28,280 nucleotides of DNA, from UHGV virus genome UHGV-0263858; one strand, written 5' to 3'. This stretch comes from a virus. The notes beneath the pieces are model-generated. The model had not been told where the DNA came from. It made no database searches and saw nothing but the letters and a program-made list of their open reading frames with translations. This document shows positions 1,312-25,668 of the stretch, piece by piece. How positions within the stretch are numbered: position 1 is the first letter of the stretch; every line of letters starts with the position of its first letter. A program made the position numbers and the translations under genes.

Positions 1312-2052
1312 ATGCTTCATTGGGTTTGTACAAAATGTCAGTCTAAAAATTCTACGAAGGAATCAGTGTGTCCTGCGTGTGGAACTTCTTTTTGGTCGAC
1401 GCAGAAAAAAGAAAGGAGAGGGTGTTTATTGTTGGTTGTAATGTTCTTCGTTGTGTTTTGGGTTATTGGGCAATTATCCGGAAACGAAACCGATTCACAG
1501 GTAAATAATATTCCATCGAAAGATCATATTGGCGATGAACTTGCTTTATCTGGAGTAGACAAGGCGAAACCGTATTCTTTTGTGCGTTATGATGACATAA
1601 GTTATGCGGGACGAAAGAGATTTAAGGTTTTTATAGTGTCGCCTGAGTCTCAAGATTTAGAATCAAGAGCTTCGACAGCAATGACCGCGGCTATTGAGTG
1701 GCAGAAAGAGAAGAGAGCTGACTTTGTATCTGTGTTGCTTCTACCTACGGAAAATTCTGAAGGTAGTTATCGGTTGGCAATGGTTGATTATTCTCCGGAT
1801 GGTTGCGGAACTGGTGCTGTATGTGATAATAAAAAATGGACTATATTGTCTAGTGACGTAATATTAACGAAATCGCAACTTCAATCTATATCCTTGTGGA
1901 ATGAGTATAAGAAAAAGTTTGCGGGTAATGATGGGATTTTGGATTTAAAGGAAGAAAAGAAATTGAAGCAGTTTATTAGTAAACAGCTAAATATTCCTGT
2001 TAAGGATGTATTTACTCCAGATATTTTTCCTTTAAAGAAAATCGAAGATTAA
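1312..2052 (+). CDS. hypothetical zinc-ribbon membrane protein (C-x2-C...C-x2-C N-terminus, one TM segment, ~185-aa C-terminal domain)
   Basis: ATG at 1312 preceded by GGAGAA. N-terminus CTKCQSKNSTKESVCPACG has two CxxC pairs, then a hydrophobic segment LLLVVMFFVVFWVIGQL. The gene is visibly AT-rich compared with the phage genes. A terminator follows at 2130-2166. Confidence 0.6.
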   Translation: MLHWVCTKCQSKNSTKESVCPACGTSFWSTQKKERRGCLLLVVMFFVVFWVIGQLSGNETDSQVNNIPSKDHIGDELALSGVDKAKPYSFVRYDDISYAGRKRFKVFIVSPESQDLESRASTAMTAAIEWQKEKRADFVSVLLLPTENSEGSYRLAMVDYSPDGCGTGAVCDNKKWTILSSDVILTKSQLQSISLWNEYKKKFAGNDGILDLKEEKKLKQFISKQLNIPVKDVFTPDIFPLKKIED

Positions 2053-2129
2053 CAAAATAAATAGACGAGACTGAATTAGTATTATTGTAATCTTTAACTG
2101 GTACCCTCACTTGTGAGGGCACCAAAAAG

Positions 2130-2166
2130 AAAACCCGCAGTTTTTACGCTGCGGGTTTCTGCTTTG
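2130..2166. terminator. bidirectional intrinsic terminator (stem CCCGCAG/CTGCGGG, flanked by A-run and T-run)
   Basis: Hairpin 2134-2155 followed by TTTCTGCTTT on the plus strand and TTTTCTTTTT on the minus strand. It sits between the converging 1312-2052 gene and the hok-like gene. Confidence 0.55.
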
Positions 2167-2244
2167 GGATGTGTATAGGGTGCCTTATCAGTCTTGCCCT
2201 GACAACCGATTGACGGGGGAATCTCTTCCCCCGTCGCGGTTTCC

Positions 2245-19086: not shown

Positions 19087-21003
19087 TTATCCTCCACTCA
19101 GTGCAGCCGCGATTTCTTCCAGACTCATCTCATCGTCGTCCTGCTCATCTCTTCTGGCACGGGCCAGAGCTTCAAGATCCAGCTGCCACCGCTGAACTGA
19201 AATACGCAGGGCAGCATAGGCATATACCAGGCAGTCGAGGGCTTCGTTGCGTCGCCCTTTTTTATCCCACAGCAGTTTCACCCTGCCATTAACCACCTTC
19301 TCCACCAGCTCTTCCGCCACGATCTGACGCGCCTCTTCTTCCGAAAAAATGTCGGGGTTATCCGGAAAACGGAAGGTGTACGGGGCGGCTTCACTGGCAG
19401 AGACCACTGGCAGGGCAAAACGGGCGTACAGCATTTCCTTGACGGTATCGGAGCCCACCTCACACAAAAACACACCACGCTGGTTGCGCTTTTTGGGCAT
19501 GGTGATCACCGGCTTGCCGTACACCGATGCCCCTTTTATGGGAAGCACAAAAAAAGTGCCGTGTTTCCTTGAACGCTGATACACAATGTCCTGGTCGATA
19601 CCACCGGTATCCCAGCAGACACGGGAAATGGAAATTTCAGTACCGTCAGCATGACGATATTTTTTCCGGATCACCGTATCAACACGTTTAAGGGTGTCCT
19701 CGTCTTCCGGTCGCCCCATGATAATTTGCTTATCAATCAGAAAGGCTTCTTCGCCGGGAGCCCAGCCCCAGACATAAATTTCATAGCGATCTTTCTGGGA
19801 GTCGATCCCGGCAGTCAGGTAAACCACCCGCAGGGGAACCTGCGCGCCATAGTGGCAGACCTTTTCCAGTAACAACTCAAAGCTCAGTTTTTCTGCCACA
19901 GCCTCTTCATAGGGCTCCCCGAGCGTGGTGTTAATAAACGTCTTGACGCCGTTCGGGTCCTTCAGCGCATCCAGCCAGTCGTAGACAATCTGCACCCAGG
20001 TGGTGAATGGACTGTACGCCGTCCAGATGTGGTACGAAATTGAGCGCGGTGGCGGTATCTCCTCATCACCGGCGCTGTAAAATGTCAGGCCATCACGCGT
20101 CCACATCCCGGTATTGTCACAAATCCAGCGTCCGTCGGTCTGGTCAAGTTCCGACTGCCGGATCACACAGCCATTATGTTCACACAGGTAATACACCGTT
20201 TCCGGTTTACCCTTCTCCCATTTCAGGCCAGACGGCGTCGCATCATCGCCAAACTTCAGATACTGGGCCTCCCCGCAATGAGGGCAAGGGACATAAAACC
20301 GCATGAAATGCGCAGATTCATTCGCGGCTTTCTCAATCTGGCAGGAACCTTTGATTTTTGGCGTTGAGCCACGTATGGATTTAGGCCATACCGAGCCTTC
20401 GATACGTTTATCACCAAGCAGCGTCGGCGAGCCTTCTTTTTCCACATCCGGTTCAAACGAGGAGAGTTCGTCATAGCAGACCACATCCACAGATTTTTCA
20501 CGGTAGTTTTTAGCTGCGGCACCGCCCAGGCACCAGAACCCCACACCGGAGGAAAAACGCTTCAGGGTGAGTGTATTATCGCGGTGTTTTCTTCCGAACC
20601 ATGGAGCCAGCTCCAGCAATGCAGGGACATCCCTGATCGTTGGCTCAACATGAGATTTCATGAAATCTTCTGCCGCAGAATCTGTTGGCTGAAAAAGCAG
20701 ACTGTTACGGGATTTATGCTCAATAAAATAAGCCTCCACCCCCAACAGCATTTTGGTGTAACCAACGCGCGCCGATTTAATCAGATTAACGGTGCGGATC
20801 CGGTCATTTCCCATGCTGTTCATAATGGCAACCTGAAACGGCAGGGTTTCCCATTGTCCGGGAGTGTATGAAGATTCTTTCGGCAGATAATAATGTTGAT
20901 CAGCCCACTGAACCGTCGTCAGTGGAACCGGAATATTGAGAGATAAAAGCCCTGTAGCTATCGCACCGGCTGCATTAGCTGCCTTCTGTGCGTCTGAAAT
21001 CAT
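19087..21003 (-). CDS. terminase large subunit (lambda gpA-like)
   Basis: Identity to lambda A along the whole length ([25 protein letters not shown](T/S)[111 protein letters not shown]). Start set at ATG 21003 (SD AGGTGG); the ORF track extends to 21045. Confidence 0.93.
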
Positions 21004-21523
21004 CAATCCACCTGCCCACGTTTTCACCGGCGTTAGCTGCAACATTGGAGGCTTTCGCGATTTCAGTTTTCACCGCATCAAGGTGTGACGGTGAAATATC
21101 CGGATATTTACGCTGTAATGTCAGCGGCACACGTACAAGTATCCCCGAAATCTCCTGTGCCACACGTTGCAGAATGAAGGTAAACAATTCCGTTTCCAGC
21201 ACCAGCCCTTCTTCACGGGCATTTTTCAGCTCCTGTGCGTCAGCCTGTGCTTTGGTGAGCCGGTAGCGTTCATAGTCAATGGTGCCGGGTTGTAAATCTG
21301 ATTCTGCAGCCGCACGCAAATCTTCCAGTTCTTTGCGGAGCTTTTCGTTTTCGATATCAGTTTCTCTCTGCGCGTACCACTGAATTGCCATCGCGGTATC
21401 AAACACCGATTCAACACCCTTGCTACCTCCGGAGACGCAAGATAGCCCCTGAGACTGCCAGCGTTCAATCGTTCGCGGATCCACGTTGAAAATTTCAGCA
21501 AGTTTCTTTTTGTTAACTTTCAC
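20975..21523 (-). CDS. terminase small subunit (lambda gpNu1-like)
   Basis: [25 protein letters not shown]...[48 protein letters not shown] matches lambda Nu1. Start is probably GTG at 21523; the ORF track begins at TTG 21541. Confidence 0.85.
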
Positions 21524-21547
21524 AATACATTTCTCTATCAAATACAG

Positions 21548-21602
21548 GGTCCGACATGAAAACGCTTAAAATGCCCTTTTTCGGGTGTTTTCATGTCGGA
21601 CC
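21548..21602. repeat. 16-bp perfect inverted repeat (GGTCCGACATGAAAAC ... GTTTTCATGTCGGACC) with 23-nt spacer, just upstream of Nu1
   Basis: Read directly; followed by TTTTACT on the plus strand. It lies where a cos/terminase-binding region would be expected, but cosN itself is not identified. Confidence 0.4.
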
Positions 21603-21884
21603 TTTTACTGATGTGATATCAGAAAAAACAAATAGTTATGCGCGAGAAGTACCGACATGCTTTTTCCTGAAAAATTTTCATAAATAGCGCGTTTTTGCGC
21701 GTGCTATGACCCCCGGTGTTTCAGATTTCAGAAAGGACCCGCACAAGTGAGAGCATTTATCATTAACATTTACAGATAAGATGACGCACGTCATTGAAAC
21801 ACCATTCAGTCCTATACCGGCAGCATCCGTTGTTGCACTCCGTAACTCTGCTACTAAGGTTAAAAGCATGGCCATCTTTTGCCA

Positions 21885-21926
21885 CCGGCAAATCTTCAAT
21901 GGATTTCCCCTGCCGGTTTTTTATTT
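21885..21926 (+). terminator. plus-strand intrinsic terminator-like hairpin (CCGGCA ... TGCCGG then T6)
   Basis: Stem 21885-21890 with 21911-21916, then TTTTTTATTTTCG. There is no convincing plus-strand CDS upstream, so it may end a small RNA or antisense transcript. Confidence 0.35.
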
Positions 21927-22107
21927 TCGTCGATGCGTAACATTGCATTCACATCAAGAGCAGCTATTGTCATTAGTATGTTGCATCAATGCATGGGTGG
22001 TATTGGCGGTCTTCGCCGGCCGGTTCTGTGTAGCTGCTCCCTGTGACCGGTTTTTTATTTCTCACATTACAGCATCCCCTCAGAGTGAAGGGCTGCTGTA
22101 ATGTCTG

Positions 22108-22407
22108 TTACTCAGTAACTACCGCACCTTCCGGTAATTCCATACCGGCAAATACCGGACAACCAGGATGACGATCAGCTTCTGTTGCTTCCAGCATTGA
22201 CTCACCAAACCACTCCGTCGTGGCACGACCATCAGCTGCTTTGTAGTGGATCAAGTACTGGTTTTCGCCATCCGCATACTGCGCACGGGCTTTAACCTCA
22301 CCCCATTCATCACTGATGCGCATCTCCACCAGTTGAGACAACTCAAACTTAAACGGAGCAGCATCAGCACCAATTACAATCGGTTTGTTTTCTGTTGTTT
22401 CCATCAT
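22108..22407 (-). CDS. hypothetical acidic protein (99 aa)
   Basis: ATG-ATG start at 22407 with SD CAGGAG. Followed by a 10-bp inverted repeat (CATTACAGCA / TGCTGTAATG, 22065-22103). Family not recognised. Confidence 0.55.
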   Translation of the reverse strand: MMETTENKPIVIGADAAPFKFELSQLVEMRISDEWGEVKARAQYADGENQYLIHYKAADGRATTEWFGESMLEATEADRHPGCPVFAGMELPEGAVVTE

Positions 22408-22492
22408 CGTCTCCTGATATCTAATCCCGCCGCCGCACCGGGCGGTGGCGCACCCTTCATTTTTCAGCAAAATATTCTGCTCTTACAGACGA

Positions 22493-22675
22493 TCAGTTCT
22501 GCACACACCGTCGAACGCCATCAATAAGCTGACAGACCTGAGACGCGGTATCGAAAAGCTGGCGCGCCTTATCCAGGCTGACGCATCCCACCAATAAAAA
22601 AGGCACCAGTATCGCTACCAGTGCCCATTTCGCCGCCACTCGCGGTATTCTGTGTGTCCAGTGTTTTCGGCTCAT
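22493..22675 (-). CDS. small lipoprotein (60 aa; signal peptide with lipobox L-V-G-C)
   Basis: MSRKHWTHRIPRVAAKWALVAILVPFLLVGCVS... The mature part of about 30 aa has two further Cys and is not Pro-rich, unlike Rz1-type o-spanins. ATG lies 1 nt after the upstream ORF stop. Confidence 0.5.
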   Translation of the reverse strand: MSRKHWTHRIPRVAAKWALVAILVPFLLVGCVSLDKARQLFDTASQVCQLIDGVRRCVQN

Positions 22676-22676
22676 G

Positions 22677-22763
22677 TCACCACCAACGCACAGCCCAAAT
22701 CAGAACAGCGACCGCCACAAGGCGGATTGCAAAGGCCGTTGCCCGAATAAAATCAGCACTCAT
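22677..22763 (-). CDS. putative 28-aa hydrophobic peptide
   Basis: MSADFIRATAFAIRLVAVAVLIWAVRWW. The ATG overlaps the stop of the upstream ORF (ATGA). Below the ORF-track size cutoff and could be non-coding. Confidence 0.3.
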   Translation of the reverse strand: MSADFIRATAFAIRLVAVAVLIWAVRWW

Positions 22764-22957
22764 CTGTTTAAATAAATTGTTGTGTATGCAACCAGTGCAG
22801 TACAAATAATCCATGCAACTGGCGTCAGTATATGTCTGATGCCCCGGCATACCGCGATGTTTTTTGCGGCATCATCAGCCCCCTGCGGGGTGGTTTCTGC
22901 TTTTATCATCAGATCATCTCCAAATTTATCTTTCGTCGTGTTAGGCTTTACTGGCAT
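22760..22957 (-). CDS. small tail-anchored membrane protein (65 aa)
   Basis: Start chosen at ATG 22957 (MPVKPNTTKDKF..., SD GGGGA); the ORF track extends to 22999 inside the terminator hairpin. Has a C-terminal hydrophobic segment WIICTALVAYTTIYL. Confidence 0.45.
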   Translation of the reverse strand: MPVKPNTTKDKFGDDLMIKAETTPQGADDAAKNIAVCRGIRHILTPVAWIICTALVAYTTIYLNR

Positions 22958-23001
22958 GAATGATCCCCATGCACATTCACAAAATGAATCCATAAACACA
23001 A

Positions 23002-23040
23002 AGCCCCGATTGCTCCAACAACAACCGGGGCTTTGCTTTA
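23002..23040. terminator. hairpin terminator immediately after the endolysin gene
   Basis: Stem AGCCCCG / CGGGGCT (23002-23008 with 23026-23032) followed by T-rich sequence on both strands, 10 nt after the endolysin stop. Confidence 0.5.
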
Positions 23041-23041
23041 T

Positions 23042-23419
23042 TTATCGTTTCAACTGAAAGTGAGGCCCGTCTTTCAGTGTTTTCCAGTCCCCGCCCCATT
23101 CGATGGCTGTTCCCAGCTCTGCGGCAGCCTGCTTAAATGCCTGCGCGATTTTCTCGTACAGAGGCCAGTCCCATGACACCTGGCTGCCAACCCAGGCAAC
23201 AACATCCACCGCATCACCGGTCAGGTGGCGGCTGTTCATGGTCTGGCTTTTCCCTTCCGCGACCAGCTGTTTCTGGCGTTCTTTCGTGCGCAGCCCTTCC
23301 GTAATACCGAAATCAACCTCCGTCAGCTCCAGCGCACGGCGAACGACAGCAACCAGCTGTGGTTTAACGCCCTCCAGATTCTTTTCGCTGCGACGACTAA
23401 ATCTGAATTTACCCGACAT
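23042..23419 (-). CDS. endolysin, L-alanyl-D-glutamate peptidase (T5 Lys-like, peptidase M15 family)
   Basis: Start at ATG 23419 (SD GAGGTG). SEKNLEGVKPQLVAVVRRALELTEVDFGITEGLRT...HLTGDAVD matches T5 endolysin (SEKQLATVKPELQKVARRALELSPYDFTIVQGIRT...HITGDAID). Confidence 0.8.
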   Translation of the reverse strand: MSGKFRFSRRSEKNLEGVKPQLVAVVRRALELTEVDFGITEGLRTKERQKQLVAEGKSQTMNSRHLTGDAVDVVAWVGSQVSWDWPLYEKIAQAFKQAAAELGTAIEWGGDWKTLKDGPHFQLKR

Positions 23420-23421
23420 AT

Positions 23422-23697
23422 TCACCTCAACAATGGAAAGATTTTTGTGACGTTCCCGCGTGCGCGTATCACCAGCACGCAGAACAACAGATTAAAAAAC
23501 ACTTCCAGCCAGCCCGTTGCTAACGGGCGACCACACAGATAGCTGAGGGGCGCAAAGGCATACAGCAGTATCAGCAGCCAGGCCATCCATGACACCAGCG
23601 GTTTATGTCTGGAATCACGGCGACGATAAAAAAAGAGCGTCAGCACGATAATCGTGCATAACGCCACATTCAGCAATCCGGGAAGGTTACTTAACAT
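23422..23697 (-). CDS. membrane protein with three predicted TM segments (holin or antiholin candidate)
   Basis: Start at ATG 23697 with strong SD GGAGGAGG. 91 aa, three hydrophobic segments. Sits between the holin-like and endolysin genes. Confidence 0.55.
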   Translation of the reverse strand: MLSNLPGLLNVALCTIIVLTLFFYRRRDSRHKPLVSWMAWLLILLYAFAPLSYLCGRPLATGWLEVFFNLLFCVLVIRARGNVTKIFPLLR

Positions 23698-25308: not shown

Positions 25309-25383
<75 letters not shown>

Positions 25384-25499
25384 ATCCTGGAACTCGGCTA
25401 CCTGATTTTCATTCTGCACTGAATATCGAGAGAAGCTCTCTTTATTCGAGCCGGTAAGCGAACTTATCGTCTCGGGCTACGCCATCGCGTGGCCGAAAT

Positions 25500-25584
<85 letters not shown>

Positions 25585-25592
25585 GGACTTGA

Positions 25593-25668
<76 letters not shown>

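Follow-up and report, generated by a model that had tools for sequence, protein, structure and literature searches.

Positions 21524-21742 of the window, the whole 28,280-nt stretch of viral DNA analysed here, very probably form the cos site of an apparently intact lambdoid prophage of the phage 21 packaging-specificity group, with nick positions predicted by sequence comparison. The cos site is in itself ordinary, as a lambda-type terminase implies one. The unusual part is cosN, which belongs to a rare, apparently unstudied sequence class, GGTC-N5-(C/G)ACG. The entire window is 100% identical to a prophage of E. coli STEC005, five genomes match it at 99.8% identity or more, and its late genes are on the minus strand. 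On the late strand, 21524-21742 can be aligned gaplessly with the phage 21 cos annotated in GenBank M81255, with the sub-sites in the order cosQ, cosN, I2, R3, I1, R2, R1 and I0, followed by the GTG start of Nu1 at 21523 (Table 1). A complete lambda/21-type cos is placed directly upstream of the genes for a Nu1-family TerS and a gpA-family TerL. The initial annotation had proposed a cos region upstream of Nu1, and this is borne out by the sub-sites assigned from the alignment together with the two terminase families.

Table 1. Features of the cos region and its neighbours, in window coordinates
Feature	Position	Strand	Remarks
TerL (gpA family)	19087-21003	-	638 aa in identical RefSeq genome; longest ORF up to 21045; Pfam GpA_ATPase 7.9e-55, GpA_nuclease 2.2e-68
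TerS (Nu1 family)	20975-21523	-	GTG start; Pfam Phage_Nu1 2.6e-82
I0, IHF box position	21525-21539	-	Mapped from M81255; poorly conserved here
R1 box TTTCATGTCGGACCCT	21546-21561	-	14/16 vs phage 21 R1; proximal arm of inverted repeat
R2 box AAGGTCCGACATGAAA	21589-21604	-	16/16 vs phage 21 R2; inverted relative to R1 and R3; distal arm of inverted repeat
I1, predicted IHF-binding box CATAACTATTTGTTT	21626-21640	-	Between R3 and R2; 13/15 vs phage 21 I1, same position; binding predicted
R3 box AAGCATGTCGGTACTT	21647-21662	-	Orientation as R1; 14/16 vs phage 21 R3; conserved in 61 relatives
I2 box TATGAAAATTTTTCA	21668-21682	-	Contains palindrome; 15/15 vs phage 21 I2; lambda near-identical
Predicted cosN, 12-nt 5' cohesive end GGTCATAGCACG	21700-21711, ±2	-	Gapless alignment to phage 21 and phage cdtI
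cosQ GGGTCCT, packaging-termination signal	21734-21740	-	Core of phage 21 'R4' box (M81255)
Conserved non-coding unit	21781-21927	+	Ends in terminator-like hairpin 21884-21917 and T-run 21917-21927
134-bp segment	21927-22060	+	Between 14-bp direct repeats CCGGTTTTTTATTT (21913-21926, 22047-22060); ends in weak terminator-like hairpin 22019-22051
Strong conserved hairpin	22064-22104	-	Directly after stop codon of upstream late-strand CDS; 16-bp helix
Upstream late-strand CDS, function unknown	22108-22404	-	PHROG 1935; bounds non-coding region

Order, orientation and spacing of the sub-sites are those of phage 21 (M81255 / X02501), whose R4 box corresponds to cosQ, and the R boxes are identical to those of phage 21 at 14-16 of 16 positions. 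TerS is 93% identical to phage 21 gp1. Its residues 1-27, with the helix-turn-helix, are identical, including positions 20 and 24, and the recognition helix is that of phage 21. All of these likenesses, the DNA-binding end of TerS included, are read directly from the alignments. In contrast, the cosN overhang and its flanks differ (GGTCATAGCACG here, GGGCGGCGACCT in phage 21), and no relationship is seen in the 22 nt that separate cosQ from the nick. Relatives that have the cosN of phage 21 and a near-identical cosB possess a TerL only ~82-85% identical to the one here.

Lambda shares the tripartite cosQ-cosN-cosB arrangement, an R2/R1 pair in the form of a 16-bp inverted repeat, the cosQ heptamer GGGTCCT and the CTATTTATGAAAATTTT block (PMC9026076), as well as a 12-bp stagger frame with the same symmetric positions. 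Conversely, the R boxes of lambda are of the CGTTTCC type whereas those of the window are of the CATGTCGG type, and packaging specificity is accordingly different. The cosN sequence also differs, and TerS and TerL are 52% and 64% identical to their lambda counterparts.

A 16-bp perfect inverted repeat at 21548-21602 and a short palindrome had already been pointed out. Both are present: the arms at 21548-21563 (GGTCCGACATGAAAAC) and 21587-21602 (GTTTTCATGTCGGACC) form a perfect 16-nt pair, which the search tool extends to 21-nt arms at 90%, and the palindrome is TGAAAAATTTTCA at 21668-21680. Folding of the repeat is significant (z = -6.6 and -7.9), and 0/200 shuffles fold as well. Judged by the alignment, the repeat is the R2/R1 pair, two predicted TerS-binding boxes and not an RNA hairpin, and the palindrome lies within I2; both are known cos sub-sites rather than separate structures. 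The octamer CATGTCGG has three copies in the 28-kb window, all at 21551-21659 and in the orientations -, + and -, matching R1, R2 and R3. The three R boxes have the layout of a complex cosB, with R3 and R1 direct and R2 inverted. On reading the sequence, the I1 box shows no clean match to the IHF binding consensus WATCAANNNNTTR.

It is very improbable that the inverted repeat functions instead at the RNA level, folding in the late transcript into a hairpin that serves for attenuation, RNA processing or translational control of Nu1. Such a hairpin would suit the predicted energy of -30 kcal/mol (z = -6.6), the location 23-78 nt upstream of the Nu1 start and the complementarity that runs 2-4 nt beyond the boxes in some lineages. 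Over 61 relatives, however, R2 has 0-3 mismatches to the reverse complement of R1, and the arms vary independently with no compensatory pairs, which fits protein sites and not an RNA helix. No helix includes the third copy, R3, the hairpin is not followed by a U-tract, and the boxes are laid out like the R boxes defined by experiment in lambda/21 (PMC4669245).

cosQ is unchanged in every relative having a cos. The number of GGGTCCT heptamers in the window is, taken alone, not above chance. A 7-bp cosQ is expected about 22-23 bp upstream of the top-strand nick; here 22 nt separate it from the predicted nick position, and in every class cosQ and I2 are 46-47 nt apart. Genetics and biochemistry of lambda and phage 21, reviewed in PMC4669245 and PMC9026076, supply a mechanism that may apply here. 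Winged helix-turn-helix dimers of TerS would contact R3 and, on the far side of a bend made by IHF at I1, the inverted R2, with R1 in an accessory role. The bound TerS would anchor TerL, which would nick cosN twice, 12 bp apart. Terminase would then remain on the cosB end and package rightward until, at the next cos, cosQ and cosN trigger the terminating cut.

To place cosN, the phage 21 record X02501 was used, which starts at bp 1 of the left end, so that bp 1-12 correspond to window positions 21711-21700. This is also where the end of the phage cdtI record falls, and the spacing to the I2/R3 block is the same as in relatives. On the late strand the nick is predicted after 21712, on the other strand after 21699, ±2 nt. 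PMC4669245 and PMC9303873 (citing Vahanian 2017) define the lambda-like overhang as 12 nt that share significant identity with GGGCGGCGACCT, bp 1-4 and the CG flanks being conserved. The predicted end GGTCATAGCACG differs from the lambda/21 end at 7/12 positions (5/12 identical), left half included; bp 3 is T and not G, and the left flank in this register is GG and not CG, while the right flank CG is retained. Read from the sequence, pairs 0/13, 2/11, 3/10 and 6/7 are rotationally symmetric, four of the five pairs of lambda, whose symmetry pattern is described in PMC9026076. Relative to lambda, G:C has become T:A symmetrically at bp 3/10 and at bp 6/7. This symmetric change suggests an altered half-site read by a symmetric pair of TerL subunits.

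Overhangs vary among lambda-like phages (N15, phiD326, Gifsy-1 and mEp213, from the Feiss laboratory) despite a common cosQ and a gpA-type TerL. Relatives of the window likewise have GGGCGG followed by CAGCGG, GAGCGT, AAGGCG or CAGGCG. According to PMC4669245, PMC12315714 and PMC9303873 (citing Vahanian 2017), bp 1-6 and the CG flanks are retained in the published variants, which differ in bp 7-12. Unlike these, the GGTC class is altered at bp 3, 5 and 6 and in the left flank. Its flanks are ...AACACCG(G/A)G on the left and CGCAAAAAC... on the right. Six variants were found, combined with at least five cosB/TerS types; bp 1-4 and 10-12, the GGTC...ACG frame, are kept, and bp 5-9 are variable. 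The class occurs in 53/5426 complete E. coli genomes (about 1%). A contig scan gave three matches, one of which, an Acidobacteriota MAG without cosQ, is due to chance. A literature search for the overhang sequence returned unrelated primer matches only.

Two other readings of the divergent cosN were weighed. The nicks might lie 2 bp further from cosB, giving the end GGGGTCATAGCA at 21702-21713 within the sequence ...ACACCG/GGGGTCATAGCA/CGCGC, which we regard as unlikely though worth keeping in mind. This shift restores CG on the left, so that both sides carry it as in lambda; lambda-like phages are reported to conserve such CG flanks as well as a start rich in G (PMC4669245; PMC9303873). It also moves the variation of the class to bp 7-11, the half that is variable in lambda-like phages as well, and the title of Higgins and Becker 1994 (cited in PMC9026076) names a measuring tolerance, 47 ± 2 bp, that would accommodate +2. 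Conversely, cosQ would be 20 nt from the nick, compared with 22-23 nt in all other classes, and the nick-to-I2 distance would be 14 nt and not 12 nt, though the total from cosQ to I2 is unchanged. Rotational symmetry, read from the sequences, would fall from 4-5 pairs to 2-3, and the pairing of the invariant T3/A10 would be lost. A dead or decaying cosN in a prophage unable to cut, its divergent sequence without function, is more improbable still. The 7/12 differences from lambda include left-half positions whose mutation lowers lambda yield (PMC4669245), and they affect the left half, first 4 bp and flanking CG that are said in PMC4669245 and PMC9303873 (citing Vahanian 2017) to be under selection. 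Moreover, no phage record in INPHARED was found to carry the GGTC class at its ends. Against decay, the flanks, GGTC, ACG, cosQ and the spacing are kept across the six variants and the different cosB/TerS types. The class is present in E. coli, E. whittamii and Enterobacter mori, always beside intact TerS and TerL ORFs, and at the E. coli frequency given above. Decay would neither preserve spacing and symmetry nor co-vary with TerL.

The GGTC class was always found with one variant of the TerL nuclease domain. Where GGTC-class loci have different TerS, the identity of their TerL over nuclease residues 336-600 is still 99.5-100%, while the TerL that is closest overall (96.6% identical) belongs to the GGGCGG class and differs at 8/60 residues in 541-600 (ORF numbering). 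This segment corresponds to about 526-585 of lambda gpA, beside the conserved RRNEALD motif. Judging by motif conservation, it presumably lies beside the catalytic motif. The association of TerL with cosN is a correlation among linked, recombining modules. Tentatively, and with alternatives together carrying more weight, we propose that enterobacterial lambda-like phages possess a second, uncharacterised cohesive-end class, GGTC-N5-(C/G)ACG with its own flanks, in which the nick-proximal half-site is changed symmetrically on both strands and is matched by this specific 60-residue nuclease-domain segment as the cosN-recognition determinant. If so, the segment would be the long-sought determinant, and its exchange between the 96.6%-identical TerLs should switch which cosN is cut.

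In the published view, bp 7-12 drift in nature while cosQ, the overhang's left half and the CG next to the nicks stay constant (PMC4669245). The GGTC class is a natural break of the left-half and CG rule, yet cosQ, spacing and symmetry are kept, and its carriers have a TerL sharing 96.6% identity with the TerL of phages whose left half is canonical. A sequence search of the PDB for a TerL relative found no gpA-type structure. The class-specific residues, being clustered in one segment, form a small and testable candidate set. Cohesive-end compatibility limits the exchange or hijacking of packaging among phages, prophages and cos-bearing islands.

From cosQ to the upstream gene there are 365 non-coding nt, in the slot of reverse-oriented morons in other lambdoid phages. 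A plus-strand intrinsic terminator at 21885-21926 had been noted in this interval, and a terminator-like element is indeed present, spanning 21884-21927. The stem-loop at 21884-21917 consists of a 7-bp outer stem (ACCGGCA/UGCCGGU) and a 5-bp inner stem, and is followed by TTTTTTATTTT up to 21927 (UUUUUUAUUUU in RNA letters). A strict terminator scan (loop <=8 nt) misses it because of the internal loop. The hairpin is modest energetically (-13.5 kcal/mol, z only -2.25, with 6/200 shuffles as good); its significance comes from conservation, as 2/41 columns vary in the terminator-like element compared with about 30% in the flanks. The start of the hairpin lies 176-178 nt from cosQ in 77/78 distinct relatives. 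Its most likely role, present or past, is to end a short transcription unit on the reverse strand.

Coding capacity of 21745-22107 was considered and rejected: four candidate ORFs have no Pfam or PHROG family, are not open in relatives and lack codon periodicity. A mechanical 106-aa ORF at 21781-22101 (+) exists but is broken in relatives. Codon periodicity of substitutions was seen on neither strand, and indels in the region are not multiples of three. The statement that there is no plus-strand CDS is thus right in substance.

The initial annotation had further suggested a small RNA or an antisense transcript. Of this, the conserved hairpin, the conserved T-run and the non-coding character stood; a promoter, an Rfam match, covariation and a match to the Pas RNAs were not found. 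A scan of 21000-22800 for sigma-70-like plus-strand promoters found none, and hand inspection of the alignment revealed weak -10-like hexamers only, without a -35 element. RNAalifold on 35 sequences of the unit gave 0 covarying pairs, the hairpin itself being invariant. Rfam searches at E <=1 on 20500-23500 and at the gathering threshold on the whole window returned chance matches (rox1, His_leader) and three tRNAs only. The unit does not show the marks of a base-pairing small RNA gene, namely its own promoter, a conserved structure or seed and membership in a described family. Among known EPEC prophage small RNAs, PasA, PasB and PasC (PMC8550237; bioRxiv 10.64898/2026.05.13.724894) were considered and rejected, their probes being absent from the window; PasB in E2348/69 lies between tail genes and not at cos.

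Even so, 21781-21927 may encode a plus-strand small RNA of about 135-150 nt with its 3' end at the conserved terminator, a non-coding 'moron' beside the right chromosome end; we consider this possible but doubtful. The terminator-like hairpin and its 11-nt T-rich run are nearly invariant, and a U-rich stretch precedes the hairpin. Conservation sets in near 21781-21791 and breaks off exactly with the T-run; past this point, one of two alternative contexts is present. Three relatives have a reverse-strand 65-aa ORF with its own terminator in the same slot. Lambda bor, in reverse orientation between Rz and cos, is a similar unit: it runs against the late operon, has its own terminator and is situated between cosQ and the last gene of the late strand. 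Unlike bor, the unit here has no encoded protein and no recognisable promoter, and the would-be promoter region is its least conserved part. PGAP annotation is absent there in almost all genomes listed. A somewhat better, though still less than even, chance is given to the view that the terminator-like hairpins and the 14-bp repeats have no present function and are either vestiges of earlier reverse-oriented morons or short conserved linkers for recombination of lambdoid modules. The 134-bp segment between the identical repeats is present or absent among close relatives, being missing from those of the phage cdtI type, and the module is joined to many upstream genes and many cos types. The missing promoter and covariation also fit this view. 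However, the hairpin at 21884-21917 is far more conserved than its flanks, and this conservation, together with the nearly fixed distance to cosQ, argues for constraint. The fixed distance would also fit the idea, of low probability, that the conserved unit is part of an extended packaging signal upstream of cosQ, for which we know of no lambda precedent.

Several elements had escaped the initial annotation, namely the third repeat copy (R3), the positions of cosQ and cosN, the stronger hairpin at 22064-22104 and another, weaker element resembling a terminator at 22019-22060. The hairpin at 22064-22104 is strong (z = -6.2), with 93% of cells paired and four pairs with double (compensatory) changes. 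None of 500 shuffles reaches its covariation, and pairing in slid controls is 35-50%. The late strand pairs at 93.0% and the plus strand at 89.3%.

The late genes of the window all lie on the minus strand, in the order lysis cassette, CDS 22108-22404, a 584-nt gap, TerS, TerL, portal and protease. Since a Nu1-type TerS and a gpA-type TerL lie beside the gap, a cos site was expected in it. On the late strand, 21524-21742 gives an ungapped alignment with the annotated left end of phage 21, bearing out the initial annotation, which had placed cos upstream of Nu1. Sub-sites were mapped with GenBank M81255, in which they are annotated, and X02501, whose base 1 is the first of the cohesive end. The alignment identifies the region as cos and predicts its sub-sites. 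TerS shares 93% identity with phage 21 gp1; residues 1-27, which include the DNA-binding helix-turn-helix, are the same in both. Judged from sequence, this architecture is that of the phage 21 specificity group. Positions 21400-22250 match, at 100% identity, a prophage present in E. coli STEC005 and in related isolates from goats and food. CDS 22108-22404 (minus strand) belongs to PHROG 1935, of unknown function (4.3e-59). Rfam identifies three tRNA genes at 25312-25668 (minus strand); the RefSeq annotation of an identical genome has only two in that stretch (tRNA-Gly and tRNA-Thr).

Coordinates of predicted cos sub-sites and neighboring features (window positions unless stated)
Feature	Position	Strand	Remarks
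TerL	19087-21003	-	Pfam GpA_ATPase and GpA_nuclease
TerS	20975-21523	-	Pfam Phage_Nu1, 2.6e-82; GTG start at 21523
I0	21525-21539		Poorly conserved vs phage 21
R1	21546-21561		14/16 vs phage 21
R2	21589-21604		16/16 vs phage 21
I1	21626-21640		13/15 vs phage 21
R3	21647-21662		14/16 vs phage 21
I2	21668-21682		15/15 vs phage 21; holds the 13-nt palindrome
12-bp cohesive-end frame	21700-21711		Frame matches phage 21, sequence does not
cosQ (core of "R4")	21734-21740		GGGTCCT, as in phage 21
134-bp segment	21913-21926 and 22047-22060		Lies between these identical 14-bp direct repeats, CCGGTTTTTTATTT
65-aa ORF	L009 (a related locus) 1973-2170	-	Between cosQ and hairpin A; same ORF in loci L008 and L055

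The perfect 16-nt inverted repeat reported at 21548-21602 is present (z -6.6 and -7.9, 0/200 shuffles as good) and corresponds to the putative R2/R1 pair. The reported 13-nt palindrome was also found in place, within I2. A third repeat copy, R3, had been overlooked. The 28-kb window contains three copies of the octamer CATGTCGG, all of them in cos, with the orientation R1(-), R2(+), R3(-). Among 61 distinct relatives, R2 differs from the reverse complement of R1 by 0-3 mismatches, the arms vary independently, and no compensatory changes between them were observed. This pattern fits two copies of a protein site rather than an RNA helix. By analogy with lambda and phage 21 (reviewed in PMC4669245 and PMC9026076), TerS dimers would bind R3 and R2 over an IHF bend at I1, TerL would nick cosN at two points 12 bp apart, and the terminating cut would require cosQ.

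When homology sets the frame, the predicted overhang is GGTCATAGCACG, whereas lambda and phage 21 have GGGCGGCGACCT. The two differ at 7/12 positions, including bp 3, 5 and 6. Relatives were collected as 80 IMG/VR loci at 93% or higher TerS identity and 120 loci found via the conserved upstream hairpin. Several overhangs accompany the same cosB: the lambda sequence, a series beginning GGGCGG, and the window's class, GGTC-N5-(C/G)ACG. The second halves of the GGGCGG series are CAGCGG, GAGCGT, AAGGCG and CAGGCG, consistent with the published rule that bp 1-6 are fixed and bp 7-12 drift (PMC4669245). Six variants of the window's class have been found so far, including GGTCATAGCACG, GGTCATGGGACG and GGTCGTAGGACG; GGTCTGGGGACG occurs in prophage SerU-LTIIb, GGTCGGTAGACG in phage record vB_EcoM-705R4 and E. 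whittamii, and GGTCTGCAGACG in Enterobacter mori. Locus L210 is an exception to the GGTC frame: it has the class flanks but carries GGGATGCGGACG. In the class and in L210 alike, the left flank reads AACACCG(G/A)G, the right flank reads CGCA(A/G)AAA and cosQ is intact. The class accompanies five or more cosB/TerS types that are unrelated to one another, and among 5426 complete E. coli genomes, 53 carry the window's variant or near relatives. From cosQ to the I2 block the distance is 46 nt both in the window and in the GGGCGGCAGCGG class; in lambda and phage 21 it is 47 nt. The segment has thus been replaced with its spacing preserved. One GGTC-class cosQ-cosN segment (89.8% identical) lies at 300521-300578 of NZ_CP041417.1, a 306-kb record of E. 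coli STEC711 classed as plasmid rather than chromosome.

PMC4669245 and PMC9303873, the latter citing Vahanian et al. 2017, describe the left half, first four bases and CG flanks as conserved in lambda-like phages. The predicted GGTC-class sites depart from this pattern. A register shifted by 2 nt would give the overhang GGGGTCATAGCA at 21702-21713 and bring back the left-flank CG; we consider this register the less likely of the two. The homology register retains 4/5 of lambda's rotationally symmetric pairs, and at bp 3/10 and bp 6/7 both sides have changed, from G:C to T:A. Because its cosN lies outside the lambda-like sequence pattern, the region is regarded as a variant, not a typical member. 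Searchable literature returned only unrelated primer matches to the overhang. Among INPHARED phage records the GGTC class was found only in SerU-LTIIb and vB_EcoM-705R4, internal to the record in both.

The window's TerL is closest overall (96.6%) to TerLs beside GGGCGG-type sites, and is 93% identical to those of GGTC-class loci with a different TerS. Comparison with TerLs of loci L203, L140, L172, L125, L017 and L032 revealed mosaic differences. Residues 15-100, the TerS-binding end, follow TerS type, while nuclease-domain residues 336-600 (ORF numbering) are 99.5-100% identical across all GGTC-class TerLs. In residues 541-600 the 96.6% relatives differ at 8-9 of 60 positions, and in other segments at ~1-6%. 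Eight positions are class-specific (lambda gpA numbering: S386G, L554E, T555E, Q558R, L560I, S580K, K582G and T628S), concentrated at 554-582. Positions 580 and 582 immediately precede the conserved RRNEALD motif, which we take to be part of the nuclease center. A sequence search found no solved structure of this TerL family. The TerL-cosN association is a correlation among linked modules, but the class-specific positions give a small set of candidate residues for cosN recognition.

The remaining, distal half (21743-22107) is non-coding, in agreement with the reported absence of a plus-strand CDS. Mechanical ORFs are broken in relatives, where 1- and 2-nt indels are common; codon periodicity is absent (variable columns per phase 9/13/11 and 10/12/12), and PGAP leaves the stretch without annotation in nearly all of the listed genomes. 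The reported plus-strand terminator, hairpin C with its T-run (21884-21927), is a genuine conserved element and a putative terminator. A strict scan for terminators did not pick it up. It is modestly stable (-13.5 kcal/mol, z = -2.25). In a set chosen independently of it, 2/41 of its columns vary vs ~30% in the flanks, and conservation spans ~21781 to the exact end of the T-run. It starts 176-178 nt from cosQ in 77/78 distinct sequences, across many cos types. In L188 (four IMG/VR contigs), the sole case in which the unit does not lead into cosQ, the sequence diverges ~25 nt short of where cosQ would be, passing into unrelated DNA that begins an ORF-like stretch.

The conserved unit may plausibly encode a reverse-strand small RNA of ~135-150 nt, but several findings speak against it: no sigma-70-like promoter was found on that strand, conservation is lowest where a promoter would lie, RNAalifold detected no covarying pair, Rfam gave no match, and the unit is not among EPEC prophage sRNAs. 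A vestigial or linker role is rated slightly more likely, though below even odds. In three relatives (L008, L009 and L055) this slot is occupied by a 65-aa ORF on the reverse strand, zinc-ribbon-like and equipped with a strong terminator of its own, and lambda bor is reverse-oriented between Rz and cos. The slot is thus a site of reverse-oriented morons. The ORF has the pattern CxxC...C-P-x-x (MKKTGIPYGSDTSSGTYSCDDCGY...), and its carriers have the window's cosN.

Hairpin A (22064-22104) lies directly 3' of the stop codon of whichever late-strand gene precedes it; the upstream gene differs among relatives. Its 16-bp helix is paired in 93% of cells, and at four pairs both bases have changed in a compensatory way. 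None of 500 shuffles reached the observed covariation, and pairing in slid controls is 35-50%. G-U pairs slightly favor the late strand (93.0% vs 89.3%), and neither strand has a U-tract at the hairpin. The 134-bp segment ends in a weak terminator-like hairpin, is missing from phage cdtI-type relatives, and is present or absent among close relatives. This distribution resembles deletion or insertion via recombination between two terminator-like modules. Just upstream of cosQ (21743-21775), the motif TGATAA-N5-6-(T/A)(C/T)TCA-TTT is common to lambda, phage 21 and the window's family, even amid unrelated surrounding sequence. In lambda (L004, last 60 nt of the right end) the motif is a near-perfect palindrome, TGATAATCATTATCA, resembling a Fur box.
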